DNA of 54,771 nucleotides, counting the filler, from Jimgerdemannia flammicorona (taxonomy: Eukaryota): the NCBI GenBank assembly GCA_003990765.1. It is 3 parts of 3 records of this genome, joined end to end, with 100 filler letters (N's around TTAATTAATTAA, not from the genome) between each part and the next. Parts side by side here need not be neighbours in the genome. Positions count along the whole stretch, not along the records: positions 36,584 to 54,771 come from RBNJ01002271.1; 2 more parts are not named here. One strand, written 5' to 3'. Each line of letters starts with the position of its first letter. Positions within the stretch are counted from its first letter, which is position 1. Positions 7,857-54,771 of this stretch are shown one piece after another. A program made the position numbers and the translations under genes. Below the pieces are notes generated by a model, which was not told the origin of the DNA, searched no databases, and saw only the letters and a list, made by a program, of their open reading frames with translations.

Positions 7857-7858
<2 letters not shown>

Positions 7859-7896: not shown

Positions 7897-7899
<3 letters not shown>

Positions 7900-9260: not shown

Positions 9261-9262
9261 TT

Positions 9263-15226: not shown

Positions 15227-15229
15227 TAG

Positions 15230-16814: not shown

Positions 16815-16817
16815 AGA

Positions 16818-16853
16818 ATAGTCTGGAACAGACTACCCTTCAGTGGGGGCTGA
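16818..16853 (+). promoter_or_regulatory. Short hairpin and polypurine-tract-like site before the 3' LTR
   Basis: TAGTCT-GGAAC-AGACTA inverted repeat, then CAGTGGGGGCTGA abutting TGTGACA; same arrangement in copy B. Confidence 0.7.
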
Positions 16854-23090: not shown

Positions 23091-23129
23091 TTAGCCCCCA
23101 CTGAAGGATAGTCTGTCCCAGACTATTCT

Positions 23130-27449: not shown

Positions 27450-27760
27450 TGGGGTTGGGGATAGGGTGGCATGTTGGGAATGGTTACTACTGGATATTTT
27501 GAATGGCTGGTGGCAAGGGTGGGGGCCAGGTGGGGGGAGTCACAGGGGTTTGATACAGTGTATCTCCTGGAAAAGTGGCAAGAGGATTCAGATGGTATGC
27601 AACTGAGTTATCCTCTAGCAGAGAGGTGTAGAGGGTAGAGAAGTAGATCTGAGAGGTATCAGTTGAGGGAATGGGGTGATATTGTATTATTATTATTATA
27701 GATGGCAGTAATAAAGGGAAGTCCAAGTGACTATAAAAAAAAAAAAAAAAAAAAAAAAAA
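27450..27760 (+). mobile_element. Poly(A)-tailed non-LTR insertion (5'-truncated LINE 3' end or SINE/retrocopy) inside F1 copy B
   Basis: Absent from copies A and C; AATAAA 27710-27715; A26 tail 27735-27760; approximate TSD AGTAGAAGA / AGTGGAAGA. Confidence 0.85.
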
Positions 27761-30700
27761 GTGGAAGACCATCTGATGTAGATATCTTTCTAGCTGAAAA
27801 GCCCTTTCTTGATGAGTTTTTTTCTTGGGAATAATGGGGATTGTGCTGGATCCTTCTTCCATATTTCAAGAGTCATTATCATCCCAGGGAATGAGTTCAG
27901 AGACTTCTTCTTCTTTGGGTACTTCTTGTTCAGAAATTTCTTAGTCAAGAACTTCTTCTTTCTTAAATGATTCTTGGCCCCAGATTGCTTGTACTTCTGC
28001 AGCTTCAGCTGCAGATATGTCTGGAATATGTTTATATTTCTTCTTCTTCCTTCTGTACTTCAGACAGGCTGTGCCAGACAAATTCCTTATCCCAATGATC
28101 TTAAAGGAGTGCTTGGGGCACTTGTGTCTCTTGAGACAGATGGGGCATCCTTTGATTTCTCCTACAATGGCTCCAATGGTAATAGAGACAGTGTTCTTGG
28201 CCCATATATTGTCTTCTGGTCTATCATCCATTAGATTGATCCTGGGATTGAGTCTGGGATCATTTCTATCTTCAGATTCTTCTTCTTTCTCTGTAGTAGA
28301 TTCTTCACTACTGGCATATTCTTCCTGAATAGTAACCTTCTTCTTTTTCTTTAATTGCTTATAGCTGATTATCTTGGCTCTATACTTCTTGCCTTGGTAG
28401 TCAAACTTGAGTACTTATTGACTGATATCAATAACTGTATTCATTTCCTTCATCTAGTTGATATCAAGGATTATATCATAGGTGACAGCTTCAGTGATAA
28501 CAGCTTTTGGGATAGAGAACTGAATGTGTCCAAGGGAAATAATGATGTTTTATACTTCTCTAAAGGATTGAGTTCAGGCTCCATCTGCTACTATGATGCT
28601 GAGGTTGGATGGTCCATCAATGGACCATTGGAGGGTGTCCAGGAACCATTTGACAATGATACAGACTGCTGCTCCTATGTCTATGAGGATTTTTGCCTTT
28701 TGTCCTCCAATGTCTCCATATAAGTAAGTACTGACATATCTTTCTGCAGTTTGGATAGGAATAGAAGCTGGTTCTTATTGTGGGATCAGAACTTGGCCAG
28801 TGTTAGACCTAGTAGTTCTCAGCAGTTTGTTTCAGACTCCAGCTAGTATCAGTTGCAGGAACTGTAGAAGGGGAATCTCTATCTTGGCTTCTTGAATCTT
28901 CTATCAGACTTCATTATAAATACCTCTAGATATAGTCTTTAGGGTGTACTTCTTTTTGGGCTTTGGGGTAGCAGGTTCCTGTTCTTTTTATTCCATCTCT
29001 TCATCCTCTAGTAGCAACTCATTTGTCTCAGGAACAAAAGATGAGAGGGTTTGGGGAGATATTTCTATCTGCTCCTCTTTATGTTCTTCATCTTCTTCTT
29101 AGATGATTCTTCTGCTGATATTCCTGGATAGTCTTCCTATAGGTCTCTTCCTTTTCTCTGCTGGATAGACTGTTTTCTGAGTGGTAACCTTGGTAGAGTA
29201 TAAGTCTAGGTCACTGTAGTCTTTACTATTACTTGTTTCCTCGAAATCTTCAACAGAATGGGCTTCAGTCTTCTTGTACTGAGTGTCATTCCTTCAGTTT
29301 AGTGGTTCTGAGTCTTTTCAGTCACTTCTTTTGTTATTATATTCAGTAGTATAGTGTCTGAATTGTCCACAGTAAAAGCATTAGACTTGGGCTCTGTCTT
29401 GGACAGGATATCTTCTTTCTTCTTGCTGATAACTTCTTTATCTCTAGGTGGATAATCTTGGCTTCTCTGTGGTGGGTATCCTCTGTTGTCTTGGTAACTC
29501 CAATTTTCACATATGTATGGTGAGTTTTTCAATCTGTCCAACCAATCAGTCCAACTTGGAGCTGAGGTCTTGGATTTCACTCCTGTCCTTCTTTCCTTCT
29601 TTGGCTGGTCTTCTTTTCTCAGATCTCTCTTGTCCTTGAAGGAGTCCTTGTAGGGCTTTGACCAGGATGTCTTTTTTATCTCTTTCTTATCATGATCACT
29701 CCAAGTAGTTTCTTGTCTGATATCAAAGAATTCTTGGACTGCATCTACTTATTCTTTGGACCTTCTGATACCTAGATGCAGATATGCTGAGTAATGTTTG
29801 GGAGAATCTCATTCATGAAGGTCATTGGACCTATGATGTTCTGGTTGGTGGCATTGAACCCAACAGAATACATTCTCTTCTGGATTCTTGTAAAGAAGGC
29901 TCTGAGTGATTCTTCAAGATTCATCTTCATCCCTATGATGGATTATTGAGCCTTATGGTGGGTTTCATTTCCTGTATATTTTTCAATGAGCCAGTGGACC
30001 ATGGCTATATATTCTAGCTTATAAGATGCTGCTGCTTATATCTGTCTCACCAGTTCTGAATGTAGGTTATTTGCTATTTGGTAGAAAATTCCTCTGACTG
30101 GTTCTCTGAGCTGGGCCTTATAGATAGCAATTTTTCTTTCATCTGAGAGATTTCTCAGGGCTGCAATTCCTTCAATTCCATCAAAGAATTCTCTGGGGTC
30201 TTCCTCTGAGTATCCTGCAAAAGTTAGCAGTGAGGTGGCCATTTGGTTCTAGTCTGGATTCTGGTTTGAATTCTGACTCTAATTTACTTTCTGAACTATT
30301 ACTAGAGATAGGAGTACTTGGGTATCTTGAGGATGGTGTTCTGGACCTTAGACAAAGTAGAATGAGCCTAGGTATTCTTATAGGAGCTACTTTCAATTCT
30401 GTGAAGGCTGGTGATAAGAGTTCAATGAGTAAGATTAGTGGGACTGATATGGGATATCTGGCTATAAGATCCCAGACTTATATAATGAGATCTTCTAGTT
30501 CTTATACAAGTTCTTCAAATTGTCCAGCAGGGCCACCTATGTTGTCTAGTTGATCTGGTTGGAGATTTTGAACTATACTGACTTCCAGTTCTAATTGAGA
30601 TCCTTCTGATGCTAGGTAGTTAGCAAGTCTTGAGGTGATTACTTCTCTTTCTGTCCAGATACTAGTGATGACTGATTCTTCTATAGTGGTAGAGATTGGT

Positions 30701-30788
30701 GTTATATTAAATGTATCCAGTTTAACTATAGGTTCTTGTGAGCTGAAAAGTCATGTCTATTTGAAATCTTCTCAGTTAAGCCTCTAAA

Positions 30789-32183
30789 TATAATATGCCT
30801 GGCTCAATGGAGGCAAATTACAAGATTGGGAATTAATGTAGTTTGGCTTGAGCCCCCAGTTACTTTGTTAAAAGTAATAAAATATTCTTGGTGTTTAGTA
30901 GTATAATAGTCAATCTGGATATCTGTGAGTAGTTTGTGTATCAATTTCCTAATTAGGATGGTTCTCTGAGTATAGTAGTGATTTATGTGTGAATAGGTTT
31001 CCTTCTTGGGTCAACTGGGAATTGGTAGAATTTTGTATATAGTATAATGATCTCCAAAAGTATATAATTTCTGAGTGATGATCTCTTGTATAGCATGATG
31101 ATCTCTAAAAGTATGTGATTTCTGAGTGACAATCTCTTATATAGTATGATAATCTTAGCAATATTCCTTATGCAAATTTGGCAGATAACTTAGTTTGATA
31201 TAGATTCTTCTAAATCAGCTCACTGAGAATAATACTGGTGGCAGATTCTTCTGAATTGGGCTCACTGGGAACAAATAACTCAGATGTCATGGATTCTTCC
31301 TGAATCAGTAAGGTTCTCTGGAGATATAGATAACTCGAAAACAGTAGTTTCAACTGGGAAATATAACTGGTGGCTTTGGGGAAAGGGTCTCTTGGCAAAG
31401 TTACATCAAAGACTAGCTTTATTTATATGAATAGATTCACTGCAAAGTTGTATCAAAGACTAGCTTCATTTGTATGAACAGATTCACTGCAAAGTTACAT
31501 CAGAAACTGGCTTGAGCAAGATAGCTTTCTCTTAGGTAGTGGAAAAGGCAGAGATCTTCAGGCTTATCTAGCAAGTAAATCAATAGCACAGCTTATTTCT
31601 TAAGCAGCAGGTTTCTCTTCAAAAGGTGGTGAAGTTCGTTACTCAAACTTTGGTAGCAAACTCAGGCTTTGTATTGGAAAGTGGACTGGAGTAGAAAAGA
31701 AATGCTTTACTTACAATCTCCTAGCAGTGGCTGTAGAGTTCCTCTCAAAGTATAGTAGATAGACTTGTTTTTTGCTTTTGGATTCAATTTCAGACTGAGG
31801 TTTATTCACTCTTATCTCTGGGGTATTTTATACAAGTTGGTTGCTATCTAATTGCTATATGGCTAACTATAGATTTACTACTTCTGGTAATGTTTGGGTT
31901 ATCTTCTGGGTACAGATATATCTATAGGACATGAGTATGTCTGCAGGACATGAGTGTGTCCACAGGACATAAGTGTGTCTGCCAGACACAGGTGTGTCCT
32001 CAGGACACAGATAAACAACCCTGATCTGGTATTCTGGCTAATTATAAGTGTAATGGATATGAGTAACTATAATATACTGAAAGTCACATTATGTTGAGAG
32101 CCCACATCATCTGGCTAAGTATGTTAATTGTTCACATTATCTGGCTAAGTTATAATTCAGATAGTATATTTTGGTTTATTACA
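30789..32183 (-). repeat. F1 copy B 5' LTR
   Basis: Repeat of 21748-23090; inner terminus decayed to TATAATA. Confidence 0.92.
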
Positions 32184-35200: not shown

Positions 35201-36031
35201 CTATCTCTAAGAGAAAATTGAAGGAAACTCTATTGAAGTCTTTATTGATAGTAAAGTAAGTAAGAGCTACTTTGATAAAAAAATTACTAATAAATTCTAC
35301 TTTAAGATATAGAGAAACCCAGAAGAAAACATTGCTATATATATTCAGAAATAGAACAATATAGAAATTCTTCAAGATATATAAGAATATACTTCTATAA
35401 CTTAGAAATTACACTATAAAGTAAATCTTCTATATCACATATCTCTCTGGATACAACCTCATCCTTGGAAAATCCTGGTTTACTCAGAAAAATTCTCATA
35501 TTGATTTATAAACTAATATAATCTCTCTAGGAGATATTAAGTTAAACTCAAGTATATCAAAAAGAAACCCAAGCCCTGATATAATTATTTAGATAAAAAA
35601 GCTAATTCAAAAACCAGACCAATATATTTATATATATATAGTCAAGAAAATCTTAGAAGAAGATAATAAAGAACTCTCTAAACTTCTGAAGAATAAAGAT
35701 AATAAGGAAGATAATCTCTAAGAACTACTTAAGGAATATGAAGATATTTTCCAAAAACCCCAAGAACTGTCACCTATCTGAGTAGTAGAATATAGTATTG
35801 AAACTATTTTTAGTTGAGATTCTCTCTATTATAGAATCTATTGATTAGCCTAATCTGAGCTAGATATTCTTAAGAAATAATTAGCTAAATTAGCAAGTAA
35901 AGATCTTATCTATTTATTAAAATTACTATATAGTATACTAATTCTCTTTATCTATAAAAAAGATAGAAGTCTTTACATATATACTAATTACTAAGTACTC
36001 AATAATATCCCTATCAAGAACTGATATATAC
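32300..36031 (+). mobile_element. Heavily mutated Ty3/Gypsy family F4 relic (gag-knuckle-dUTPase-Cys/His-PR-RT start)
   Basis: Knuckle relic *FYYKKIGHISYKY ~34335-34380; dUTPase relic; PR relic VFIDSK(G)..SYFD ~35240 and ILGKSW ~35460; RT start LLKEYEDIF...KKDRSL ~35725-36020. Left boundary approximate. Confidence 0.75.
34460..34862 (+). pseudogene. dut: F4 dUTPase relic
   Basis: SDISYNL, RSYLA, RVVDQEFKDEIKIML, KQIA*, NRGEKAFRS: the five motifs with transition damage. Confidence 0.8.
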
Positions 36032-36483
36032 TGTGATGGTACAGCCGAATTTGGAAGAAGGAAATAGGGAATAGACACTTGATCGTACCCATTCCCAAAG
36101 TAGTATAGTCTTATAGTTAGCAGTCCTCGATTTTGACATTGTCTAATTTCTTAGACATTATCCAAATCGAATACCCTGATTTAGCATAGCATTTAGACAT
36201 TGTCTAAATGTTTCGACAAAGTCCAAATGACTCATTTATTACTTAGCCACCCTCTCATAGCTAGCAAACTTGTATAAATAACCCAGTATCTTTGAGTGAA
36301 TAAACCTCAGATCAAAATAGTTCAAAGCAAAGAGATAGCAAAGGAACTAGTAAGCCTGCGGGCAGATACACTTCGAACTCACCCACCCTCCCCTGCAACT
36401 TCAAAAAGACTCTGCGAGAGTCAGAACAGTCAAGTTTTCAAGATACAGAAATCCGACGTACTTTCAAGAGTAAGTGTCCGCTA
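36032..36483 (+). repeat. F2-type LTR (variant U3), cut by the gap; interrupts F4 RT
   Basis: Starts TGTGATGG; reverse complement of the F2 LTR 47055-47521; retains more CpG than neighbours. Confidence 0.9.
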
Positions 36484-36583
36484 NNNNNNNNNNNNNNNNN
36501 NNNNNNNNNNNNNNNNNNNNNNNNNNNTTAATTAATTAANNNNNNNNNNNNNNNNNNNNNNNNNNNNNNNNNNNNNNNNNNNN
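36484..36583. other. Assembly gap linker
   Basis: N-run/TTAATTAATTAA/N-run. Confidence 0.97.
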
Positions 36584-36591
36584 AAAAAAAA

Positions 36592-38891
36592 GACATTGAT
36601 GGGAATTCGTATCTTCTGTCTCTGGTAGGTGATCTGCATCTTCTGGACATTGAGATCAATTACTGCCTTGGCTTTGTGAAGCCATTGATTGCCAATGAGG
36701 ATATCATAGTTGGTGGCATTGGTTACAATTACATCTACTGGGATGGTTGCTCCTCCAATCTTGATGGAAACATCTTGGATCTTTCCCAGAGGTGTGGCTC
36801 TTGTGCCATCGGCTGTGATGAATACCAGCTTAGTTGCTTCTTCTACATCCCAACCTAGGCAGTCTGCTACCTTCTTACTGAGGAGACATCCTCCTACTCC
36901 CATATCAATGATGGCTTCAAAGATTCTATCTTTGATTTGGTATGTTGCATAAGCAGAGGTTTTGTGATTGTCCTCACTTTCTTCTCCTGAGTTCTCTTGA
37001 ACATTATTGGCCTCAGTTATCTTCCATCCTTATTCCTTAGTTGTTTCAGCAAGTCCAAACCTCATTTACTGTCTGAATGTTGGGATTTCTGTGAGCTGAC
37101 CAAAGGTTGCATTGATCTTTTGTTGACTGAGGTCCTTGAAGATATCATACTTGAAGGTCTTGGTCTTCCAAAGCTTCTTTTCTTTTTCTCCTTCACTGGC
37201 TGGAGTGGTTCCTCAGATAATATCTTGGACTGCTTGTTCCAGCTCCATATCTTGGTCCATCTCTTCAGCTTGGCTTTCAGTGGCTGTTTCCATCTGCTTT
37301 TCTACTGAGTTCTTCTTGGGTCTTTCTGGTGGTCTCTTGTAGGGTTCTTTGCGAACATCCTTCTTGGTGGTCTGAGCAGGATAGGCCTCTCATTCTTCTT
37401 CATCAGAATCTCCAATTTCCTCAAAGGTAATTGTATTGGCCTGTTCCTTGTTTCATGTAGCATTGCTTGGTTGAGCCTTGCACTTGGTTTTGCTCATGCA
37501 TTCATAGGAGTAGTGGCCTTCTTCTCTACAAGTATAGCAGGTGCCTTTCTTCTTGTCTGAGGTGACAGCAAACTTCTGGACAGAGCGGTAGTCTCTTCCT
37601 CGAATTTCCTTTACCACATCTCCCAGGTGGGCAGTCATTTCGGCAAACCTTTTGGCGAGTTCCTCCATAGGGTCACTGTTCTTTTGCTGCTATGTAGCTT
37701 TTGGCTGAGGTGTGTTTCGATTGATCATTGTGGTAGGGATCACACTGGTTGTCTTGGGTGTCTTGATTCTGACTCCTGTGACCCTTTCCATTATATGGTC
37801 TTATGGATGTCTGGCTATCCAGTATCGCTAAGCATAGGTGACCTTCTGTGGCAGATCCAGAATTACTGGTGATGAGCAGATGGCCATGGCTATTTCTGAA
37901 TAGACTCCTTTCATGAAGGTTGCTTTGGCTACTTGATCTTGGATAGCAGCAGCATAATCTGCAAGGATTATCTGATATCAAATTCTGGTATAGAATGTGT
38001 TTAGATCCTCGCTTATTCCTTGGCATGTTGTATTGAGCTGATCCTTCAGGACTTGCTTGATCTCATCTGTATAATATGTATTTTGAAGCCAGGTCTTCTG
38101 TACTGTCAGTATAGCATTGGTATCATTTTCTGCATGGGTTGCGGCTGTGAATGCTGCTCTGGCAGGACCTCGTAGGCTAAAGGGCATAAGGGCTACTTGC
38201 TGTGCTGCTGTCAGGGTCCTTACAGCGGCATACTGCTTGAAATCATCAATGAAGGTGATAATTGATTTGTCTGAGGTATATCTGTGGAATACTGGTGGTC
38301 TCATATCTATCTTGTCTGGGTATTGGGGCTCAGTTTGTATGGTTGTTCGGGTAGGGGTGGTTGTTCATTGTTCAGCTTGAAAGTGAGGGATTCATCTTGA
38401 ATCACCAGCCAATGGGCACCAAGTTGTAATGTAGTGGATGCTTACTCTTGAAAGTATGTCAGATTTCTGTATCTTGAAAACTTGACTGTTCTGACTCTCA
38501 CAGAGTCTCTTGAAATTGTAAGGGAGGGTGGGTGAGTTCAAAGTGTATCTGCTCGCAGGCTTACTAGTTCCTTTGCTATCTCTTTGCTTTGAACTATTTT
38601 GATCTGAGGTTTATTCACTCAAAGATACTGAGTTATTTATACAAGTTTGCTAGCTATGAGATAGTTACTGGGTTACATGGCTAAGTTATGAGTCATTTAA
38701 CACTTTGTGAAATATTTGGCCAGTTGTGAAATGCTATACTATATTGAGAAGCTCAATCTCGCACTTTGCGAAATATTTAGCAAATGGCAGAATCAAGGAC
38801 TGCTAACTATGTGGCTATACTACTTTGGGACTGGGTGTGATCAAGTATCTGTTCCCTATTTCCTTCTTCCAAATCTGGCTATACTGTCACA
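36592..38891 (-). mobile_element. F2 5' fragment (LTR 38425-38891, PBS, gag, protease), truncated at the gap
   Basis: Colinear with 51470-53757; CYTCREEGHYSYEC knuckle; protease ORF 36532-36903 (YDILIGNQW). Confidence 0.93.
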
Positions 38892-38899
38892 ATATATAT

Positions 38900-41256: not shown

Positions 41257-42651
41257 CTCATAACCTTTGTTGTAAAGAGTGGCATTTTTATTGAAGTTAT
41301 ATAGGTTGCATATTTCATACATTATTAATAAATGATATAAAACTAATGGAATGATATAAGTCACATACTGATATATTGAGTTACTATCTCTTAATAAAGG
41401 ATATAACTTTTCTTTAGAAATTCTATTAAAATTTCTATTATATAATATATTTATATTGGATTACTACTTCTTCTATACTTGGTAAAAGATTTTCTTTTTT
41501 CTTTTAGATGAGATTTTATTTAGAATAATCTTTCTATTTTATAAGATAATACTGAGTAGGCTTGATAGTTTGTCTAAATTATCAGTTCTTATAATTTAAG
41601 ATATAATTAACTTTATACTCTGGTTCTTAATTAATAATAATTGAGTTTAAAGATAGTATAATTCTTCTATTAAAGATATTTAAGATATATAGTTAAAGCT
41701 AAGATATATAAAATATTAAGTAGATTCTTCTAAGATCATTGAGAGATCTAATTTGTTATAATGGTTAATCTGAATTAAGAATAGTAATTAGGAGATAGAT
41801 ATTTGATTATAGTATCTAAATCTAATTTCTGATATAGTATAATATATAGTTTAATAGTTATTTAATCTCTCAGTTATACAATTTATATAGCTATATAAAA
41901 CTTACAATTATATAGATTGTACAAATATATAAATCTCTCAACTATATGAAATGACTTATAGAAAAAGAAGTTTAACTTAGCTAATATATAGTTAGTAAAC
42001 TTATATAAACATTTCTGGTATCTAAAGTAAATAAACCTCAGATTGAAATAGTTTAAGTAAAGAGGTAAGAAACTAGTAAGTTTGTAGATAAATATACTTT
42101 GAACTTATTTACTCCTATATCTGAGAACTCCAAGGAGTTAAAGAAGATCAAGTATTTAAGATAAAGAAATCTATCACACTTCTGCTAATTATATCTACTA
42201 TATTATAACTTAGTACCCATTGACTGATAATTTAAGATAAATTTCTCACTTTTAAGCTAAATAATAAACAACTGCTACCACTCAAATATACATTCAAATT
42301 AAACTAAGATATTCAGATAAGATAGATATAAGATTACTAATATTGTATAGAAAAACTTCTGATAAATCAATCATCATCTTTTATAATGATTTAAGTAATA
42401 TACTATTATAAGAATTCTGTTAGTATAATAACAATTAGTTCTAATATATATCATTTAGTCTCTAAGAATTAGCAAGAGCTATATTTATAGCTATAAATAA
42501 TATCAGAAATAATGATATTATAATACTGCTAGTACAGAAAGCTTAGTTGTGAGTCATCTACTATATAGATAAAATCAAGTAGACCCTAAAGAACTAACTC
42601 AATACTATTTATTAAAAAATAAATAGAGACCTAAATATCTTCTATAACTAA

Positions 42652-44175
42652 TGTAACAGTGACCTCAGAATGATGACATCAGCACAGGAGACATCCTTTT
42701 TTTGCAAGCCACCAGATCAGAGTATAAGAAGATTATACGACATACGAGATGAGTAATGATGACCAACTGTGAGTCATTGTGACCACAGTATAAGCATCCT
42801 GAAGAATATAAAAGAAGGATCAAGGAACCACAGTAGCAGCAACCAACAAGAACCACTAATCCCAAAATAGCTCAAAGACTTACCACAAACAAAATGCCTG
42901 CTGCTCACCAAACCTCAAGATCAAGAAATCACCAAGGTATCTCAGTTGAGGAAAGAATGTTCCAAGACATCAGAAGAGCCATGAGGACCTGCTCAAGAAG
43001 GACCCCTAGTGTCAACATGGATACTGCAGACTCTTATCACTTCATCTTCTACTGTTATAAAATGGAAACAAGGATTACTATTGCTACTGAATGCCTCTAA
43101 ATGTGGCAGGAGTATGAAATAGAAAACCTCCTCTGCTGGGAGTTCCCACAGGCCAGCACCCAAGAGCTACAAGATGCCACTCCTATGGACATATGTGAAA
43201 TGAGGACAGCTAAGAAGATCTATCAGATCTTCAGGCATGCACCATGGTCGATCCCCAACTTGAAGTATGTTAGAGTCTCAGATTTCAGAGATCTATCATT
43301 CTGCTATATCAATGTACTAGAAGTCAGGGTGGCTACAGAAGCCCAGTTCACTATCACCCTCAACAGCAAAGAAGTAGAAGACTTCTGGCACCCTATCCTT
43401 CAGGACAACCCAGACCAATTCCTGCAAGGATTGATCTCAGTATTCCAAGGCCCAAGCATCCAGGTTAGATCTCCCCAAGACCCCACATTTGTTCTCTATT
43501 TTGTAGAAGAGAACCTCATAGACTGGAGAGCTCCAGACCTTGTCCCCGATTTCCCTGCCACAGCCAAACATGATGACATCATTGATGATATCATCCCATA
43601 TGACATCGGAGCATGCGAAAATGATAAATTTATGGATCTCATCTCCTTCAGTGATGATGATGATGAAGCCCCCATGATCCTGAACTTTCTGCTCTAAGTT
43701 CTTTGTTACACTAGATAATACCAGCACTGGTATTCTCATGTAACATTGGATAATGCCAGCACCGGTATTTTGAGGTGACACAAAATTGTTCCAGCACCAG
43801 CATTTTGATGTGATATTAAATAATGCCAGCATCCTGAACCTGTACAACCAACAGTGCCAGTCCTGGAACTTAGTAGTTTTAGTTATTGGAATTTATATTT
43901 AGCTTTATATCTTAGCAACCATTGAATTATATTTTGTATAAATACCCCTCTTATTTCCTTTGAAATAAAGTTCTAGTTCTGGTTTCACTTACACACACTT
44001 CCTTGCAAGCAATCTAAGAGATAACAAGACAGTTAAAGATAAGAAGTTTGAGGACTATAAGACCTTGGGAAGGCACTTCAATAAGAGCTTACTTATAACA
44101 ACTTGAGTTAGTCTAAGAGATATACCTTGAAGAGAATCTGGTGTATTTAAAGGACTCAGCGACCACTATGTGATA
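42652..44175 (+). mobile_element. Family F3 solo-LTR-like unit (1524 bp) containing a protein ORF
   Basis: TGTAACA...TGTGATA ends; 4-bp TSD CTAA both sides; TATAAATA ~43937; AATAAA ~43964; second copy begins at 53933. Confidence 0.88.
42894..43697 (+). pseudogene. F3 LTR-encoded ORF (267 aa, ORF3 family), one internal stop
   Basis: ORFs 42894-43100 and 43101-43697 are in one frame; the TAA is CAA in the second copy. Confidence 0.85.
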
Positions 44176-44569
44176 CTAAATCTACTATTAGATAATCTTG
44201 GCTTATTATACTGATATCATCAGAAATTAAGTAGTCAAAGTAATCTTTATAAAAAGAATTCACCTGAAGATAACTATAGTAATCTAATTAATACTATTAA
44301 TTCTGAACTTAGTATAGAAGGTAACTTATGCTCTATAATATTGAATAATTAGATATCATCAATACTATATAAGAAGAGAGTTACTGGAATTAGAATTGAA
44401 GTACTTAAGATAACTAGTATAATTCTTATAATTATATTTAAACAAAATACACCTTAACCAAAGACCACAGAGTAATAGAAAAATAGTAATTATATAGAGA
44501 AACTTATTAATAAATATAAATAAACAAATGATTGGAAAAGATATAAATAGATAATTGAGATAAATATAA

Positions 44570-45950
44570 TATAATAGTTGATTTAAATTATAAAATATAA
44601 TCAGTAAATAGAAATTTAATTATGATATCTAAATCTGATTTCTAATAGAGTATTATAGTTAGCTATCACTCAATCTCACAGTTATATAATTTATATAATT
44701 ATGAAAAGTATAACTATATAAAACTTATAATCATACAGATTGTATAGATTGTATAAATATATAGATCTCATAACTATATGAAATAACTTATAGAAAAAGA
44801 AGTCTTAACTTAGCTGCTATATATATAGTAAGTAAACTTATATAAATATCTCTAATATTTAAAGTAAATAAATCTCAGATTGAAATAGTTCAAAGTAAAG
44901 AGACAAGAGAACTAGTAAGCCTGAATATAGTAGTCTAAGAGACTATAAATAAAAATTAAAAAAAAAATTAAAAAAAACTTTAAACTCATTCATCTTATAT
45001 CTGAGGACTCTGAGAAGTTAAAGAAGATCAAGTATTTAAGATAAAGAAATTTGCTATACTTCTAAGATTATATATCTACTATATTGTAACTTAGTACTTA
45101 TTAGCTAGTAATTTAAGATAAATCTCTCAATTTTAAGCTGAACAATAAACTACTACTACTACTTAAATATACACTCAAATTGAATCAAAATAGTTAGACA
45201 AGATAGATATAAGACTACTAATATTCTATAGATATATCTCTAATAAGTCAATTATTATCTTTATAGATAATTTTGAGCAATATATTACTGTAAAACCCCT
45301 AACACTAGTAAAATAAGTAGCTCTTCTACCATTCAGTCTCTGAGAATCTATAAGAACTATATATATTAATAGCTGTAAATTATATTGAAAATATTGATAC
45401 TATAATATTAATAGTATAAAAGGCCTAGTTGTAAACTATCTACTATATAGATAAAATCAAGCTGGCTCTAAAGAACTAACTCAATACAATCTGCAAAGAA
45501 TAACTGAAGACCTAAACATCTTTTATACTTAAATCTTCTATTAGATAATCTTGATTAATTATACTAATACTATTAGAGATCAAGTAGCTGAAGCAATCTT
45601 TATAAAGAAATTTACCTAGAGATAGCTATAGTAATCTAATCATTATGACTTATTATAGAAAGTAACTTATACTTAACAATATATATTAGATAGCCAGACA
45701 CCCTCAAGACTATATAATAGAGAGAGTCACTGGAGTCAGAGTTAAAGTACTCAAGATAGCTAGAGTAATCTTTATAACTATAGTCAATTAAAATATACCT
45801 CAACTAAAGACTATAGAGTAGTAGAAGAATAGTAACTCTATAGAAGAACTTGCTAAGAAGGTTGCTAAAATAACTATATATCTGAGAGATATAGTAAAGA
45901 AAATTAGAGGTAGAGACTATTACATAGTTTAAAAGTTTACTGCTACTATA
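44570..45950 (+). mobile_element. Second old F2-related relic (LTR ~44570-45088, PBS, gag)
   Basis: Paralogous to 41757-44560 and to F2 gag; lacks the F3 insertion at ~45525-45540. Confidence 0.72.
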
Positions 45951-46049: not shown

Positions 46050-47054
46050 CTAAATAAGTAACTTGATTTTTAAATTATCTTATTTAAACTTCTAAACTTC
46101 TATCAGTTATATATTCATATACTATATGATCTACTTGATTGTATTCTTCTAATAATATTTTTTCATTTTTCTGAAGTCTCTTAAAACTACTTCTTGAAAA
46201 TGGATCAGAGTTTATTTATTATTCTTAAATAGTTTGTAAATCTATTAGGTAATAGTGATTTGGATATAGAATATCTAATACTTAGCAATTTACTCTTTTT
46301 TAGTCATATTCTTTTCTCATTTAGTAATATTTCTAGCTTAAAGTACTCTTGAAACTCAGTATAGTTTTAGTAGGCTCCAAAGTATAAAATATATAATAGA
46401 TGAATATGTGTAATACTTTAGATACTATCAAATGATTTCTCTATAACTAGTGACTCAGCAGAATACTATTATCTTTCTATAGTTTACTAGGTAGTACTAG
46501 TGATCTTGAGAGCAATAATAGTATTTTGTTGGTAATCTATAATACTTCTTGAGTCAGTTTTAGTAGATAGTAGTAGAGATGATTGTGTATAATAGTTTTT
46601 ATAGCTAAAAGATAGTTCTTTTTATATTTTATACAAGATAAGATCTTTGATACTTGAGCTCTAGTTTTTGTAATCATGAAGCTTCTATTATGTTTTAATA
46701 TACTAGAACTTTGTTTCTTATCTTGATAATCTCTAAGAACTTATAAATCTTCTTTACATTATTCTATTATAATATCTATATTTTAATTATATAATTCTCA
46801 GTCTTATTTCTTATTTGGTATAATCTCTATATTTTAATATCTACTTATTTCAATACTGTATCTCTATTAGATAATAAGATTTCTTTAGAACATTCTTCTC
46901 TATTAGTAATTTCTGAGAGATAAATTAGATACTTTGTAATTATATATCCCAAAGAGCAGATAATACTACTGATAGATATTTGTTTTAATTTTTAAAGTTA
47001 TTATAGATCTTAGTAATAATGTTCTTAAGAATCTTATTAGTTCTTTTTATCTGT
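46050..47054 (-). mobile_element. Old F2-related 3' relic (IN C-terminus and ORF3); IN continues at 53758-53932
   Basis: Colinear with 47600-48535; ORF3 relic EFQEYFKL...QITIT**IYKLF. Confidence 0.78.
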
Positions 47055-47558
47055 TGTAACATAGCAGATGCTTACTCTTGAAAGTACATCAGATTTCTGT
47101 ATCTTGAAAACTTGACTGTTCTGACTCTCACAGAGTCTCTTGAAGTTGCAGGGGAGGGTGGGTGAGTTCGAAGTATATCTGCCCACAGGCTTACTAGTTC
47201 CTTTGCTATCTCTTTTCTTTGAACTATTTTGATCTGAGGTTTATTCACTCGAAGATACTGGGTTATTTATACAAGTTTGCTAGCTATGAGATGGTTACTG
47301 AGTTACATGGCTAAGTTATGAGTCATTTAACACTTTGCAAAATATTCAGCAAGTTGTAAAATGCTATACTATATTGGGAAGCTCGATCTTGCACTCTGTG
47401 AAATATTTAGCAAGTTGCGAAATCAAGGACTGTTAACTATGTGGCTATACTACTTTGGGACTGGGTGTGATCAAGTGTCTGTTTCCTATTTCCTTCTTCC
47501 AAATCTGGCTATACCATCACAACTTCCTCCTGAATAGATGATCTTGTCCCTAAAGTAT

Positions 47559-48020
47559 CTATTCAAACTCCCAAGCTTCAATGGTCTGTATGGTCTTGTA
47601 TTGCACGATTTGTTACATCACTGTTTCTCAATAGTGTTACCTGACTCAGTCGAAGTCTGAGGGGGTCACTCCTCGCAGGTGGGCTAGTGCTGATTCATCC
47701 ACTTGGAATAGCTTGTGGATTCTCTTGGCAATGGTGATCTGAGAATAGGAGAGCTGGCATTCTGCGATCCAATTTTCTTTGGTCATTTCTGGGTCTTAGT
47801 TGAGTACTTGGCCAAGTTTGAAGTACTCTTGGAATTCGTTTTGATGCTGATAGGCCTTGAAGTATGAGATCTGAGAGAGTTGAGTCTACACGATGCTTTG
47901 GATACTGTCATAAGACTCCTCTATGATTGGGGGCTCAGTGGTGCACCATTATCTCTCGATGGCTCTTTGGGCAGCACTAGTAATCTTGAGTACCATTGCA
48001 GTACTTTTGTTACTGGCCAT
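47559..48020 (-). pseudogene. F2 accessory ORF3 (153 aa), several transition-type stops
   Basis: MASNKSTAMV...EFQEYFKLGQVL...QITIAKRIHKLFQVDESALAHLRGVTPSDF...WEFE*, single frame. Confidence 0.78.
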
Positions 48021-49200
48021 GATATTTCTTGAGTCGGTTTTGGTAAATGGTAGTGGGGATTATTGTGCCTGAGGGTTTTCGTAGCCAAAAGGTGGTTCCT
48101 TTTATATCTTGTACAAGGTAAGGTCCCTCCCACTTAGGCTCTAGTTTTCATGACCATGAAGCTTCCACCATATTCCGATACACCAGGACTTTGTCTCCTA
48201 TCTTGATAATCTCCAAGGGTTTGTGGGTCTTTTCCACATTCTTCCATTGTAGTGTCTGCACCTTTGTTATGTAATCCTCAGCCTTCTTTCTGATTTGGTG
48301 TAGTCTCCATATTTCTATGTCCACATGTTTCCATACAGCATCTCCATTGGATGACAGTGTTCCCTGAGAACATTCTTCTCTGAACAGCATTTCTCAAGGG
48401 GTAAAGTGGGTGCTTTGTGATCGGATATCCTGAAGAGCAGATAATGCTATTGGTAGATAGTGATCCTAGTTCTCATAGTTATTGCAGATCTTGGCAATAA
48501 TATTCTTGAGAGTTTTGTTGGTCCTTTCTACTTGTCCATTTCCTTGAGGGTAATATGCTGTAGTCTGAATATGCTGGATCTTGTACTTCTTGTAGAGAAC
48601 TTTGAAGAACTGGTTCATGAATTCAGTTCCTCTATCTGTAGTTACTTGTGTTGGGGTCTTGAACCGACAGATGATTTCTTTGTGGAAGAAATCAGCGATT
48701 GACTGTGCATTGGCTTCCATAAGGGGTCCTGCTTCTATCCATTTTGTAAAAAGGTCTACGATGATGATGATGTATCAGTTGCCGGTCAAAGTCAAGGGTA
48801 GAGGGCCAATTACATCTATTGCAATATGGGTGAATGGTACTGGTTCTATGTGTGCTGATCCTGGGGCTTGATTTCATTGATCTTGTTTCTGTTTCTGGCA
48901 TTTGTCACAGATCTTGACAAATTGTCTGATATCTTCCTCTATCCCTGGCCACCATATTGTTCTTCTTGCCTTGTCATATGTATTTATTCCTCCTAGGTGG
49001 CCAAGTTTGTGTACTGATTTCATTGCTTGCTCCTTCTTGTATTCTGATATGACTAGTAGTTTTTCTTTCTTCAGTGTTTCTCCATTAGTTTCGAATTGTT
49101 TCCATGTTCTGTTGATAATCGTTTGTATCCATTCTTCCAGATGTTGGGGCATCTTTCACTGTCTCAGGTATGTGATAATTCCATAGTAGAGCTCCTTATT
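48010..49200 (-). pseudogene. F2 integrase
   Basis: HKLGH...CDKCQK; IAIDVIGP; TTDRGTEF; YPQGNGQVER; KWEGPY. Confidence 0.93.
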
Positions 49201-49209
49201 CATGGCAAT

Positions 49210-50640
49210 TTTGTGGGGGTGGAGTCCTTCGGGGTGTCTGTGAGAGGGCATCTGCATTGGCATTGGTTCTTCCAGAGTAATGTACAATGGTTACATCATA
49301 AGCTTGCAACTTCATTATTCATCTGGCATAGATTCCTTTGGATTGTCCAGTTGTCAGTTGCCAGGTGAGAGCTGAGTGGTCCATTTGGATGGTGAAGTGT
49401 CTTCCAGCCAAGTAGTAGTGGAACTTTTTTATGGCCCAGATGACTGCAAGGCATTCTGACTTATAGGATTCGTATTCTTTTTCAGCTCCTTGGGTTCCAC
49501 GGCTGAGGTATGTGATGACATACTCCACTTTATCTTTCTTTTGAGCTAGGACTGCTCCTAGTCCTTATGTGCTTGCATCAGTCTATAGGATGAATTCTTG
49601 AGTCTAGTCAGGTCTTCTGAGGATGGGTGCCTGGGTCAGTCTGACCTTGAGTTCATCAAATGCTTTTTGTTGTTTGCCAGTCCACCAAAACTTGGTATCC
49701 TTCTTGTTAAGTTTGTAGATTGGTCCCACGATATTGGAGAATCCTCTAATAAATCTGCAATAATAGGAGGCGAGTCCCATGAAGGCTTGGGCTTCTGTAA
49801 CAGTGGTGGGTCTTGGGTATGCTGTCACTGCTTGTATCTTGAGGGGGTCTATGTGTGTTCCATCTTGATTGATAATATGGCCGAGATAGGAGATCTCGAT
49901 TTCTGCGAACTTGTACTTCTTGGGTTTGATGTAAAGGCTATATTGTCTTAGTCTCTCTATTATCTGCTGTATATGCTGCAGATGTTCCTCAGGTGTCTTG
50001 CTGTAGATGATTACATCATTGACATAGACCATCATCTATCTTCCCATATCATAGTAGAAGATTTTGTTCATCATTCGCTGGAAGCTTGCTGGTGTATTGC
50101 CCATTCCAAATGGCATTCATAGGTAGCCATAGGTTCCATCTGGAGTGATGAAAGCTGATTTTTCACTTGCCATATCTGTGAGTCCGATTTGGTGGAATCC
50201 TGAGTATAAGTCCAAGGTGCTGTAGTACTGTACTTCATCTCCCAGTATTATGAGGATGTCATTGATGAGAGGCAGTGATTGGCGATCCTTCTTGGTAACC
50301 ATGTTGAGTTTTCTGTAGTCGACACAGAGTCTTGGGGTGAATTCTCCAGGCTTGCTACCTTTTTTTGGGGCCAGTACAACAGGTGAGGACCAGGGGCTGC
50401 TTGCTTCCTTAATGATACTGGCTTCTTCCATCTGCTTGATTTCTTCTCTGAGCCATTCTCGGTAGGCTGGCGGGACAGGTCTTGCTTTCTGATAAATTGG
50501 TTCAGTGTCTCCAGTATCTACTTCATGATAGTAGTGTGGGGTCTTTCCTTTGATATCCTTGAAATCTGTAGCAAGGACGTCTTCGAATTCATGGAGTATT
50601 TTCTTGAGTTCTTTCTTGAGTGGAAATTCATTCTTGATGG
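49210..50640 (-). pseudogene. pol: F2 RT and RNase H
   Basis: [28 protein letters not shown] (from YVDD), TDAS, ECLAVIWA. Confidence 0.95.
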
Positions 50641-50719
50641 TGTAGCTGTGCTTGTTTGTGTTTTCCTCCTTCTTATGCTTGAGTTTGGTGATCTTGGTGC
50701 TGGCGAATACTCCTCTTCC

Positions 50720-51135
50720 TGTGGATCCAAATCCTTTCTTTCCTCTTCTTGTTTCCTCCAGCTTCTTAACTTCTATGATCTTTGGTTGTAGGATCGGAAA
50801 GATCAACATTTGGGCCAATCAGTCCTTCTTCTTGACTGGAAATGGGATTGTAGGATTGTGATTCCTAGCAATGAGTAGAATTTCTCCAGTGTAGTCTGAA
50901 TCAATGACTCCTCCTTCAATTGTAATTTTGCTTCTAGCCAGGCTGCTTCTTGTCTTGAGAATCCCAACATGATCCTTTGGGATGGTCATCTCCAATCCGG
51001 TTACAAGTAGGGTGGTTGTCTGGGGTTCTAGTACGGTTTCTTCTACTGTAGTGATGTCCATTCCAGCTGCATTTTCTGACTTGTATTCTGGCAAGACTGC
51101 ATCAGGGTGGATCCTTCGAATCTTGACCTTGATTT
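50720..51135 (-). pseudogene. dut: F2 dUTPase
   Basis: AAGMDI, RSSLA, GVIDSDYTGEI, *LAQ, RGKKGFGSTG. Confidence 0.93.
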
Positions 51136-51469
51136 CTTCTTCATCATCACTGTCCTCCAGGAGAGCTGGTGGTTCGTCATCTTCCTCCTTCTCTTCTTCC
51201 CTGATCTGTTTTTCAAGAGCTTTCTGCCTTTTTGCCTGATGGATCTTCCTGATTCCAATGGTGTACTGGTAGCAATCATTGATGTGCTCCATGCAGTACA
51301 TCTTGATCCCATGAGGACAGACTCCTTGTGGGGCATAACCTTCTGTGATCTTCTTACACCATTCTTCTTCACTCATCCATCCGACTTTCTTCTTCTTTGG
51401 AGTAGTCACCATATAAGCTTCCTCCTGCTCACTCTCTTCTTCCTCCATGTCAGGCAGGACTCCTTTGTT

Positions 51470-51850
51470 GACATTGATGGGAATTCATATCTTCTGTCCC
51501 TGGTAGGTGATCTGCATCTTCTGGGCATTGAGGTCGATTACTGCCTTGGCTTTGTGAAGCCATTGATTGCCAATGAGGATGTTATAGTTGGTGGCATTGG
51601 TTATGATTACATCTACTGGGATGATTGCTCCTCCAATCTTGATGGGAACGTCTCAGATCTTTCCCAGAGGTGTGGCTCTTGTACCATCAGCTGTGACAAA
51701 CACCAGCTTAGTTGCCTCTTCCACATCCCAACCTAGGCGGTCTGCTGCCTTCTTGCTGAGGAGACATCCTCCTGCTCTCATATCAATAATGGCCTCAAAG
51801 ATTCTATCTTCAATTTGACATGTGGCATATGCAGAGGTTTTGTGATTGTC
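51470..51850 (-). pseudogene. F2 aspartic protease
   Basis: AIIDMRAGG (DTG decayed); YNILIGNQW. Confidence 0.85.
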
Positions 51851-52299
51851 CTCACTTTCTTCTCCTGAGTCCTCTTGAGCATTATTGGCCTCAGTTATCT
51901 TCCATCCCTGTTCCTTAGTTGTTTCGGTAAGTCCAAACCTCATTTGCTGTCTGAATGTAGGGATTTCTGCAAGCTGGCCAAAGGTTGCATTGACCTTTTG
52001 TTGGCTGAGGTCCTTGAAGATATCATACTTGAAGGTCTTGGTCTTGCAAAGCTTCTTCTCTTTTTCTCCTTCACTGGCTAGAGTGATTCCTTGGATGATA
52101 TCTTGAACTGCTTGCTCCAGCTCTGTATCTTGGTCCATCTCTTCGGCTTGGCTTTCTGTGGCAGTTTCCATCTGCTTTTCCACTGGATTCTTCTTGGGTC
52201 TTCCTGGTGGTCTCTTGTAGGGTTCTTTGCAAGCATCCTTCTTGGTGGTTTGAGCAAGATAGGCCTCCCATTCTTCTTCATCAGAATCTCCAATCTCCT

Positions 52300-53188
52300 T
52301 GAAGGTAATTGTATTGGCCTGCTCCTTGTTTCATGTGGCATTGCTTAGTTGAGCCTTGCACTTGGTTTCGCTCATGCATTCATAGGAGTAGTGGCCTTCT
52401 TCTCCACAAGTATAGCAGGTACCTTTCTTCTTGTCTGAGGTGGTGGCGAACTTCTGAACAGGGTGGCGGTCTCTTCCTTGAATTTCATTTACCACGTCTC
52501 CCAGGTGGGCAGTCATTTCAGCAAACCTTTTGGCGAGTTCCTCCATAGGGTCACTGTTCTTTTGCTGCTCTGTAGCTTTTGGCTGAGGTGTGTTTCAATT
52601 GATCATTGTGGTAGGGATCATGCTGGTTGCCTTGGGTGCCTCGATTCTGACTCCTGTGACCCTTTCCATTGAATAGTCTTGTGGATGTCTGGCTATCCAG
52701 TATCACTGAGCATAGGTGACCTTCTGTGGCAGATCTAGAATCACTGGTGATGAGCAGATGGCCATGGCTATTTCTGGATGGACTCCTTTCATGAAGGTTG
52801 CTTTGGCTACTTGATCTTGGATAGCAGCAGCATAATCTGCAAGGATTATCTGATATCAAATTCTGGTATAGAATGTGTTTAGATTCTCGCTCATTCCTTG
52901 GCATATTGTGTTGAGCTGATCCTTCAGGGCTTGCTTGATCTTGTCTGTATAATATGTATTTCGGAGCCAAGTCTTCTGTGCTGTCAGTATGGCATCAGCA
53001 TCATTTCCTGCATGGGTTGCAGCTATGAATGCTGCTCTGGTAGGGCCTCGTAGGCTAAAGGGCATGAGGGCTACTTGCTGTACTGCTGTCAGGGTCCTTA
53101 CAGCAGTATACTGCTCGAAATCATCAATGAAGGTGATGATTGATTTGTCTGAGATATATCCGTGGAATACTGGTGGTCTCATATCCAT
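52300..53188 (-). pseudogene. gag: F2 gag
   Basis: RPPVFHG...FIDDFEQY...SLRGP.RAAF; knuckle CYTCGEEGHYSYEC. Confidence 0.9.
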
Positions 53189-53269
53189 CTTGTCTGGGTA
53201 TTGGGGCTCAGTTTGTGTAGTGGTAGTTGTTCATTGTTCAGCTTGAAAGTGAGAGATTTGTCTTGAATC

Positions 53270-53287
53270 ACCAGCCAATGGGCACCA
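53270..53287 (-). promoter_or_regulatory. F2 PBS (tRNA identity uncertain; His- or Lys-like)
   Basis: TGGTGCCCATTGGCTGGT 3 nt inside the 5' LTR; same at ~38404-38421. Confidence 0.7.
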
Positions 53288-53932
53288 AGTTGTAACGTAG
53301 CAGATGCTTACTCTTGAAAGTATGTCAGATTTCTGTATCTTGAAAACTTAACTGTTCTGACTCTTGCAGAGTCTCTTGAAGTTGCTGGAGAGAGTGGGTG
53401 AGTTCGAAGTATATCTGCCTGCAGGCTTACTAGTTCCTTTGCTATCTCTTTGCTTTGAACTATTTTGATCTGAGATTTATTCACTCGAAGATACTGGGTT
53501 ATTTATATAAGTTTGCTAGCTATGAGATGGTTACTGGGTTACGTGGCTAAGTTATGAGTCATTTAATACTTTGTGAAATATTCAGCAAGTTGTGAAATAC
53601 TATACTATATTGGGAAGCTCGATCTTGCACTCTGTGAAATATTTAGCAAGTTGCGAAATCGAGGACTGTTAACTATGTGACTATACTACTTTGGGACTGG
53701 GTGCGATCAAGTGTCTGTTCCCTATTTCCTTCTTCCAAATCTGGCTATACCATTATACTGTCTATTTTTTTGAGGATAATAAGCTATAGTTTAATTATAC
53801 TGAATATTTTACTTCTTATAGAGAACCTTGAAGAGCTAATTTATGAATTCTATTCCTTTATCTATTGTTACTTACTTTGGGGTCTTGAATTGGCAGATAA
53901 TTTCTTTATAGAAGAAATTAATAATTAACTAT

Positions 53933-54771
53933 TGTAACAGTGACCCCAGAATGATGACATCAGCATAGGAGACAGCCTTTCTTTATAAGCCACCAGATCA
54001 GAGTACAAGAAGATCATACGGCATATGAGATGAGCAACGATGACCAACTGTGAGTCATTGTGACTACAGTACAAGCATCCTGAAGAATATAAAAGAAGGA
54101 TCAAGGAACCGCAGTAGCAGCAGCCAACAAGAACCTCAATCCCAAAATAGCTCAAAGACTTACCACAAACAAAATGCCTGCTGCCTGCCAAACCTCAAGG
54201 TCAAGGAATCATCAAGGTATCTCGGTCGAGGAAAGGATGTTTCAAGACATCAGAAGAGCCATGAGGACCCGCTCAAGAAGGACTCCTAGTGTCAACCTGG
54301 GTACTACAGACCCCTATCACTTTATCCTCTATCGCTGTGAAATGGAAACAAGGATCACCATTGCCACCGAATGCCTCCAAATATGGCAGGAGTATGAAAT
54401 AGGAAACCTCCTCTGCTGGGAGTTCCCACAGGCCAGCCCTCAAGAGCTACAAGATGCCACCCCCATAGACCTACATAAGGCAAGGACGGCAAAGAAGATC
54501 CATCAGATCTTCAGGCATGTACCATGGTCAATCCCCAACTTGGAGTATGTTAGAGTCTCAGACTTCAGAGACCTATCATCCTGCCAAATCAATGCACTAG
54601 AAGCCAGGGTGGCTACAGAAGCCCGGTCCACTATCACCCTCAACAGCGAAGAAGTAGAAGACTTCTGGCACCCTATCCTTCAGGACAACCCAGACCAGTT
54701 CCTGCAAGGGTTGATCTCAGTATTCCAAGGCCCAAGCATCCAGGTCAGACCTCCCCAGGACCCCACATTTG
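53933..54771 (+). mobile_element. Second F3 LTR copy, runs off the window
   Basis: Starts TGTAACAGTGACC; colinear with 42652-43490; inserted in the old F2 integrase relic. Confidence 0.9.
54174..54771 (+). CDS. F3 LTR-encoded ORF3-family protein, open to the window end
   Basis: MPAACQTSRSRNHQG...WQEYEIGNLL...RTAKKIHQIFRHVPWSIPNLEYVRVSDF...; no stop in ~199 codons. Confidence 0.75.
   Translation, partial: MPAACQTSRSRNHQGISVEERMFQDIRRAMRTRSRRTPSVNLGTTDPYHFILYRCEMETRITIATECLQIWQEYEIGNLLCWEFPQASPQELQDATPIDLHKARTAKKIHQIFRHVPWSIPNLEYVRVSDFRDLSSCQINALEARVATEARSTITLNSEEVEDFWHPILQDNPDQFLQGLISVFQGPSIQVRPPQDPTF

Follow-up and report, generated by a model that had tools for sequence, protein, structure and literature searches.

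A solo long terminal repeat of a Ty3/gypsy lineage that probably carries a 267-codon accessory gene in its U3 region

The window analyzed here, that is, the whole stretch of 54,771 bp from Jimgerdemannia flammicorona (assembly GCA_003990765.1), has a G+C content of 36%, includes four short N runs, and consists mostly of nested Ty3/gypsy elements. At 42652-44175 it contains a unit of 1524 bp with a reading frame of 267 codons, and a second copy of the unit runs into the end of the window. These are called copy 1 and copy 2 in the following. The evidence described below makes it probable that the unit is a long terminal repeat (LTR), present as a solo LTR in the case of copy 1, and that its U3 region holds a complete accessory gene. 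The features of the two copies are as follows.

42648-42651, no strand: left target-site duplication CTAA (sequence; empty-site paralogue)
42652-44175, plus strand: copy 1, read as a solo LTR, 1524 bp, starts with TGTAACAG and ends with ...TGTGATA (sequence, self-comparison of the window, depth in three runs)
42807-42814, plus strand: TATA-like box TATAAAAG, 80 nt upstream of the ATG, candidate promoter of the putative U3 gene (sequence)
42894-43697, plus strand: accessory-gene frame, 267 codons and stop, broken by an in-frame TAA at 43098-43100 (translation, homologues, dN/dS)
43704-43831, plus strand: tandem array of a 35-bp repeat (3.7 copies), located between gene and TATA box (repeat search)
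43937-43944, plus strand: LTR TATA box TATAAATA, followed by CCCC (sequence; module common to the A-type LTR and L001)
43964-43969, plus strand: AATAAA poly(A) signal, 27 nt after the start of the TATA box (sequence; module common to the A-type LTR and L001)
44176-44179, no strand: right target-site duplication CTAA (sequence; empty-site paralogue)
45528-45531, no strand: empty site of the paralogue, CTTA, in the adjacent gag-like copy (self-comparison of the window, fine alignment)
53933-54771, plus strand: LTR copy 2, first 839 bp up to the window end, a solo or a 5' LTR (BLASTN; empty-site comparison)
54174-54770, plus strand: copy 2 of the gene, first 199 codons open (translation)

The sequence interrupted by copy 1 is gag-like; in inverted orientation, it matches the LTR/gag region of two further elements of the window, A and B, with 66-69%. 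The flanks of copy 1, 41733-42646 and 44173-44513, are collinear with an uninterrupted gag-like paralogue at 44549-45859, and therefore the 1524-bp unit is a clean insertion. In a fine alignment, the left flank could be followed up to position 45527 of the paralogue (112 of 140 positions identical) and the right flank from position 45530 (118 of 153). Direct reading and the uninterrupted paralogue at about 45528 thus confirmed a sequence-only reading of the locus, which had described a 1524-bp unit with a CTAA duplication that splits an old gag. An alternative border with a 5-bp duplication, ACTAA, and a unit that is one base shorter fits equally well. The same reading had given the ends as TG..(C)A, and this was correct in part. 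Both copies start with TGTAACAG and thus with TG, but copy 1 ends with TA, whereas two related contigs end with ...GACA. Around the insertion, a fragment comprising an LTR end and gag is present in plus orientation in two tandem copies, 41733-44513 (which contains the solo LTR) and 44549-45919, which are 74-76% identical. The arrangement at 41733-45919 gives the impression that a truncated element was duplicated in tandem.

A BLASTN comparison of the unit with the window yielded two matches, the unit itself and 53933-54771 (unit positions 1-840, 90.1%). The region directly upstream of copy 2, 53756-53930, can be aligned to 48529-48704, on the integrase side within element A, and this alignment stops 2 bp before the TG at 53933. 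Therefore, the left border of copy 2 is fixed independently of copy 1. The frame of the second copy had been predicted to be open, which is true for all 199 codons inside the window. An older A-like element in minus orientation is apparently split by element A into two halves, 46413-47049 and 53754-53932, which match 47893-48530 and 48529-48704 of element A. As copy 2 is inserted in this older element, there are three levels of nesting. The hexamer TAACTA plus one base precedes both unit copies (42645-42651 and 53926-53932), which might be due to a preferred insertion site or to chance (n=2). There is a strong depletion of CpG: the observed/expected ratio is 0.18 in the window as a whole and 0.13-0.23 in the unit copies. 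Nearly all differences between copy 1 and copy 2 are transitions, mostly with C/G in copy 2 and T/A in copy 1, and they occur in all dinucleotide contexts. Depletion and transition pattern would be consistent with heavy cytosine methylation of repeats.

Element A is a Ty3/gypsy element in which the dUTPase is followed by the reverse transcriptase (RT), and its LTRs of 465-470 bp have the termini TGTGATGG...CTATGTTACA. The primer-binding site (PBS) and the polypurine tract (PPT) of this element served as the reference for the unit.

47053-53753, minus strand: element A, Ty3/gypsy with dUTPase; LTRs 47053-47522 and 53289-53753, 94.6% identical; target-site duplication ACAG (self-comparison, domains)
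47523-47534, minus strand: PPT region of element A, TTCAGGAGGAAG, at the edge of the 3' LTR; it also precedes relatives of the unit (pattern match)
47559-48020, minus strand: remnant of the third open reading frame (ORF3) of element A, 153 codons, several in-frame stops, between integrase and PPT (tblastn, HMM, hhalign)
53275-53287, minus strand: PBS of element A, TGGTGCCCATTGG; it also follows relatives of the unit (pattern match)

Element B (36019-38892) starts and ends with an LTR, and between these it has two N runs of 44 nt each (36484-36527 and 36540-36583) and part of a gag. Either a large part of its interior was deleted or the assembly has a gap there.

Relatives of the unit were found in public sequencing runs. 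Of 24 runs listed, 20 contain part of the unit and 0 contain half of its sampled words; they are mostly soil metagenomes from 14 studies, and no RNA run is among them. Four runs were aligned to 42300-44500 at 85% likeness, one as raw reads (X22) and three as contigs (X5, X1, and X8). The numbers of aligned contigs were 177 for X5, 1747 for X1, and 41 for X8, and almost all were confined to the unit. The summed depth of X1 was 132-2757 in 21 of 22 unit bins, 1.52 in the bin 43558-43631, and 0-4.1 in the 8 flank bins. As the depth was confined to the unit in three runs, the unit is a repeat that has the same borders elsewhere.

The flanks of these relatives were informative. Upstream of 42652, at least nine contigs (three from X5 and six from X1) share one flank (agreement 0.91 in X5 and 0.99 in X1). 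Its last part is the polypurine run AGGAGGAAG, which is followed immediately by the TG of the unit. In these relatives, which come from other runs and not from the window, TTCAGGAGGAAG abuts the unit. The loose ends of X8 upstream of the unit represent two unrelated flanks. Past the 3' end, two contigs among the loose ends listed (X5 behind 44168 and X1 behind 44173) read ...ACA, ACT, and then TGGTGCCCATTGG. A shared PPT flank, a shared PBS flank, and unique flanks together are the pattern produced by 3' LTRs, 5' LTRs, and solo or 5' copies.

The PBS sequence is present in exact form at 53275-53287(-) and 38409-38421(-), adjoining the 5' LTRs of elements A and B on their inner side. These are the two exact matches of the window, and three matches were found with up to 2 mismatches, compared to 0.57 expected. 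Over the PBS region, element A and the X5 contig agree at 22 of 23 nt. The PPT pattern alone gave 4 matches in the window compared to 6.2 expected and is no rarer than chance, and therefore its weight lies solely in its placement at the edge of the 3' LTR of element A. The 3' ends of the LTRs are CTATGTTACA in element A and CTATGTGA-A in the unit, and the last approximately 40 nt of the unit can be loosely aligned to the LTR end of element A. The match of the PPT and PBS flanks to those of elements A and B identifies the unit as an LTR, and because a single unit has a target-site duplication on both sides, copy 1 is a solo LTR. Taken together, the flanks in contigs of other runs and the CTAA on both sides support the proposal of the sequence-only reading that copy 1 is a solo LTR, and they support the assignment of the unit to a lineage that is sister to elements A and B.

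Element A and the relatives of the unit resemble each other in the PPT and in about 30 nt preceding it (roughly 80%), and therefore the priming site, together with its context, was copied or retained, not invented. This similarity also bears on a different view of the unit, namely that it is the LTR of a non-autonomous element resembling large retrotransposon derivatives (LARD), which would contain a PBS, a PPT, and the accessory gene only and would be mobilised in trans by the gag-pol proteins of A-type elements. A PBS (22 of 23 bases) and a PPT nearly identical to those of element A are expected of a parasite of the same machinery, and no gag-pol was seen beside any copy of the unit. However, a likeness of about 80% in the 30 nt upstream of the PPT is a sister-lineage distance and not that of a recent derivative. 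A LARD-like element is thus unlikely, yet it is the most probable of the alternatives considered.

For the LTR as the preferred assignment, the internal layout was compared with that of the A-type LTRs. The module of TATA box and poly(A) signal has the form TATAAATAACCC...GAATAAA in the two A-type LTRs, and the metagenome contig L001 has TATAAATACCCC...GAATAAA. The frame at 42894-43697 lies wholly upstream of this module, and so by position the gene is in U3. The sequence-only reading had argued in the same way from the TATA box and AATAAA of the unit, and the occurrence of the module in A-type LTRs and L001 strengthens the argument, so that a placement of the gene in U3 is supported by motif position. 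The 35-bp repeats downstream of the gene resemble an array of U3 enhancers. The upstream box TATAAAAG recurs in copy 2 at the same relative position (54088-54095) and in L001 at bases 4-11, 58 nt before the ATG of the latter. The gene may be transcribed from this box, and its transcripts may end at the LTR poly(A) signal. With the AATAAA so near to the main TATA box, the genomic RNA would probably start at or after the AATAAA. Judging from retroviral biology, such a start would avoid polyadenylation in the 5' LTR. In X8, the summed contig depth was 2939-15552 over the last approximately 200 nt of the unit (44002-44223), compared to 5-21 just before. This would fit R-U5 reads from a start site within the LTR, but X8 is only guessed to be RNA and thus is not usable as expression evidence.

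The frame in copy 1 is interrupted by a TAA at codon 69, and copy 1 is a decayed, non-functional copy. Homologues were found by several searches. A word-indexed protein search yielded 6 proteins among 201 candidates (E 9e-125 to 5e-34, identity 81-55%), which are encoded on contigs of 778-1625 bp. The six 90%-identity clusters of these proteins have 16 members, from contigs of 540-2375 bp. An exhaustive profile search of 1.84 billion representatives found 5, the most distant of which has 28% identity. Intact frames are kept in relatives down to this identity, and so are the start and the C-terminal motifs. The family is characterized by an MPA start, an Arg-rich stretch, and an acidic tail ending with LNF.L, and its core motifs are W.EYEI, AKKIHQIFRHAPW.IPNL, and WNPILQDNPDQFLQGL...FQGP. 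L001 has an intact frame of 323 codons with 69% nucleotide identity, and the coding part alone can be aligned. Scanning of the metagenome contigs with a protein pattern gave at least one locus, of 1345 bp, which lies wholly inside the equivalent of the unit and is without border information. Among the matches listed for protein-pattern scans of the collections viral_contigs and genome_contigs there was no relative, and no longer locus was among the matches listed for the viral, genome, and metagenome contigs.

The ratio of nonsynonymous to synonymous substitutions (dN/dS) was 0.25 for copy 1 versus copy 2. Compared to L001 it was 0.16 for copy 2 and 0.14 for copy 1, with a proportion of synonymous differences (pS) of 0.68-0.72, so that synonymous sites are near saturation. 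The two copies differ by 30 amino acids, while simulations that match the observed mutation spectrum (almost all transitions between the copies) gave 40.1 +/- 3.4, and 30 or fewer were reached in only 0.3% of 5000 runs. In the same simulations 3.7 stops were expected and 1 was observed. Preservation of the frame beyond neutral expectation, on which the sequence-only reading had staked its interpretation, was thus found both in the dN/dS values of 0.14-0.25 and in the deficit of amino-acid changes. Judged by the conservation of its sequence, the LTR-borne frame is a real gene family. In all three runs the depth drops at 43558-43631, and one X8 contig skips from 43537 to 43634. This is the part of the gene in which relatives differ by insertions and deletions.

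The similarity searches did not connect the protein to a characterized family. A PDB profile search gave 0 matches at E values up to 1. The best score in the ESM Atlas was 0.83, which is below the useful range, with a structural template-modelling (TM) score of at most 0.33; for a dUTPase ORF, generic dUTPase clusters were the only ones retrieved from the same resource. No fused or longer forms of the gene scored among 8000 candidates, which is weak evidence. The protein is therefore described as an orphan. Its N-terminus is rich in arginine, its core is mostly helical, and its acidic tail, which is conserved, ends with LNFLL. From its composition only, the best guess is that it could be a regulator of element expression or transcription, or act in RNA handling or export.

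A homologue of the gene was detected at a different place in element A. tblastn and a hidden Markov model (HMM) of the family gave a weak match between the integrase and the PPT of this element. In hmmsearch, a stretch of 160 residues from element A reached 18.2 bits with the family HMM, compared to a maximum of 12.9 in 5000 shuffles. Apart from a 14.9-bit tile on the left edge of copy 2, this was the best tile of the window outside the unit copies (837 tiles scored). The next independent tile, with 5.7 bits, is at the pre-PPT position of a further element of the window, element C, at about 23337-23507. A search with the stretch from element A, in which stops were replaced by X, found 5 proteins of 88-153 aa with 66-80% identity (P0023-P0027), and intact ORF3 relatives have 115-153 aa. 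The ORF3 family has 153 codons and ends about 25 nt before the PPT. In a profile-profile comparison with hhalign, residues 23-141 of ORF3 were aligned to residues 9-149 of the LTR gene over 118 columns (probability 91.4%, E 8.9e-7). ORF3 lacks an equivalent of the C-terminal part of the LTR gene (approximately 120 residues), and a nucleotide comparison of the unit with the pre-PPT region of element A gave short, non-significant matches only.

These alignments establish homology of ORF3 of element A with the N-terminal half of the gene borne by the LTR. The two sister lineages thus have the same accessory gene, one outside and the other inside the LTR boundary. The order in A-type elements is integrase, ORF3, PPT, and a short LTR. 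In the unit, the PPT is followed by an LTR composed of leader, a longer ORF, repeats, TATA box, AATAAA, and U5. The idea of the sequence-only reading that an ORF3 was absorbed into the LTR therefore received support with respect to the homology; the gene may have moved either into or out of the LTR.

The homologue at the ORF3 position of a sister element also counts against the ORF being a captured fragment of a host gene, or a decaying relic without present function for the element. LTR retrotransposons can capture host fragments, the frame of copy 1 has a premature stop, and the protein is without known domain. However, dN/dS values of 0.14-0.25 with synonymous sites near saturation, and the conservation of start and C-terminal motifs down to 28% identity, are not those of a relic. 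In addition, no longer or host-like homologue scored among the 8000 candidates, and only 5 clusters were found among 1.84 billion proteins. A captured fragment or a relic is therefore improbable. Hardly any weight can be given to a stand-alone minimal mobile element or retrocopied gene cassette that is not an LTR, which the sequence-only reading had offered as its alternative: both copies in the window are single and the cassette carries TATA box, ORF, and AATAAA, but it is without a poly(A) tail, has TG..(C)A ends and a 4-bp target-site duplication as in element A, is flanked by the shared PPT in at least nine contigs and by the PBS in two among the loose ends listed, and has a 3' terminus and a TATA/AATAAA module homologous to those of A-type LTRs.

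The preferred explanation is that the unit is a solo LTR of a dUTPase-bearing Ty3/gypsy lineage, sister to elements A and B, the U3 region of which holds a complete accessory gene of 267 codons. The traits of the lineage would be a dUTPase between protease and RT, target duplications of 4 bp, and a U3 of about 1.29 kb. Several observations weigh against this explanation. The terminus of copy 1 is TA and not CA as in the relatives. No pair of units around gag-pol was seen, and copy 2 reaches the window end. The PBS flank is represented by two contigs only, among the loose ends listed, and the PPT flank by at least nine contigs from one metagenome and one organism, at 85% likeness. From the raw reads of X22, 0 were aligned, which counts as no test. 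Beyond short motifs, no significant nucleotide similarity of the unit to the A-type LTR was found (best E 0.074). The assignments as U3 and as a gene with its own promoter are derived from motif position only. Pfam gave 0 families above the threshold for 8 proteins, with one sub-threshold match at E 0.23, and the AlphaFold2 model, which was based on an alignment of 11 sequences, is poor (mean predicted local distance difference test score, pLDDT, of 50.5) and mostly helical. Even with these points taken into account, we consider a solo LTR with a gene in U3 to be likely.

How the gene came to lie inside the LTR can be described by a simple model. The LTR boundary is the plus-strand priming site, and this site would have shifted relative to the accessory gene between the sister lineages. 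If plus-strand priming occurs upstream of the gene, the gene becomes part of U3, and reverse transcription would then duplicate it into both LTRs. Recombination between the two LTRs would leave one gene copy per solo LTR, preceded by a TATA box and followed by a poly(A) signal. The TATA-like box 58-80 nt before the ATG and the LTR poly(A) signal could turn the LTR into a self-contained transcription unit. That a shift of the priming site moved the gene across the LTR boundary, and that every LTR and solo LTR is an autonomous gene cassette encoding a regulator of the element, is put forward tentatively, and the odds are somewhat against this more specific scenario.

Two further gypsy/dUTPase elements of the window also have long LTRs. 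Elements D (7897-18173, plus strand) and C (21750-32120, minus strand) have LTRs of about 1.4-1.5 kb, which are 82-88% identical within pairs. They were considered as gene carriers and rejected, because their long frames are of low complexity, lack a start codon, and differ between the LTR copies. Comparison of the frames in the C and D LTRs with the gene family gave no match.

Genes inside LTRs are textbook knowledge for a few retroviruses. A literature search yielded no clear description of a complete, conserved gene in a Ty3/gypsy LTR; most subscription journals lay outside this search, which is thus no proof of absence. New in the present analysis is the ORF3 of element A between integrase and PPT, with its homology to the N-terminal half of the LTR-borne gene. 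The two sister lineages form a natural before/after pair within one 55-kb window, with the accessory gene outside the LTR in one case and inside in the other. This pair makes it possible to test how LTR boundaries move, how a U3 gene is expressed without disturbing the LTR promoter behind it, and whether solo LTRs seed expressed gene copies throughout the genome. If the proposed model is true, a protein-coding gene would be multiplied and scattered independently of the survival of the element. The case is also relevant to genome annotation, in which genes inside LTRs are masked as repeats and will be absent from gene sets.

Additional proteins have been described for other LTR retrotransposons. 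CERV of the C. elegans Ty3/gypsy element Cer1 is a regulator that is required for the export of genomic RNA (PMC10309623). CERV is an orphan and has the kind of role guessed here for ORF3 and the LTR gene, with no sequence relation being claimed, but it differs in that its gene is outside the LTR and it is made from a spliced mRNA (PMC10309623). The additional open reading frames (aORFs) of plant LTR retrotransposons have been reviewed (PMC7264820), and in the main text of the review "in/inside/within the LTR" occurs 0 times and no arrangement with a U3-borne aORF was found (PMC7264820). Ty3/gypsy elements of bdelloid rotifers and basidiomycetes have a dUTPase between protease and RT and variable ORF3s (PMC5408684). 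In the text of this source, "within the LTR" occurs 0 times and "in the LTR" once, and the position of the dUTPase described there is like that in elements A and D of the window (PMC5408684).

With retroviral genes the likeness is one of arrangement only, as neither Pfam (8 proteins) nor the PDB profile search (E up to 1) indicated a relation to Sag of mouse mammary tumour virus (MMTV) or Nef of human immunodeficiency virus (HIV). The known genes in U3 or overlapping with it are MMTV sag, nef, and foamy-virus bel. HIV nef overlaps U3, and the bel/Tas region of foamy viruses has an internal promoter. Both bel/Tas and nef are regulatory genes at the 3' end that reach into U3, a location and putative role shared by the gene of the unit, but they overlap U3 partly, whereas the gene of the unit lies wholly inside. 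The foamy-virus gene is driven by a promoter other than that of the LTR, and the same model is proposed here for the upstream TATA-like box. MMTV sag is a superantigen gene in the U3 region of a betaretroviral LTR. It shares with the unit, as read here, a complete accessory ORF inside U3, which is located upstream of the LTR promoter and poly(A) signals and which in the unit, too, would be duplicated in both LTRs. The two differ in the host element, which is retroviral in one case and Ty3/gypsy in the other, and in the sister lineage of the unit, which keeps a homologous gene outside the LTR. If each LTR indeed acts as a gene cassette for a regulator of the element, it would be the retrotransposon counterpart of MMTV sag or foamy-virus Tas.

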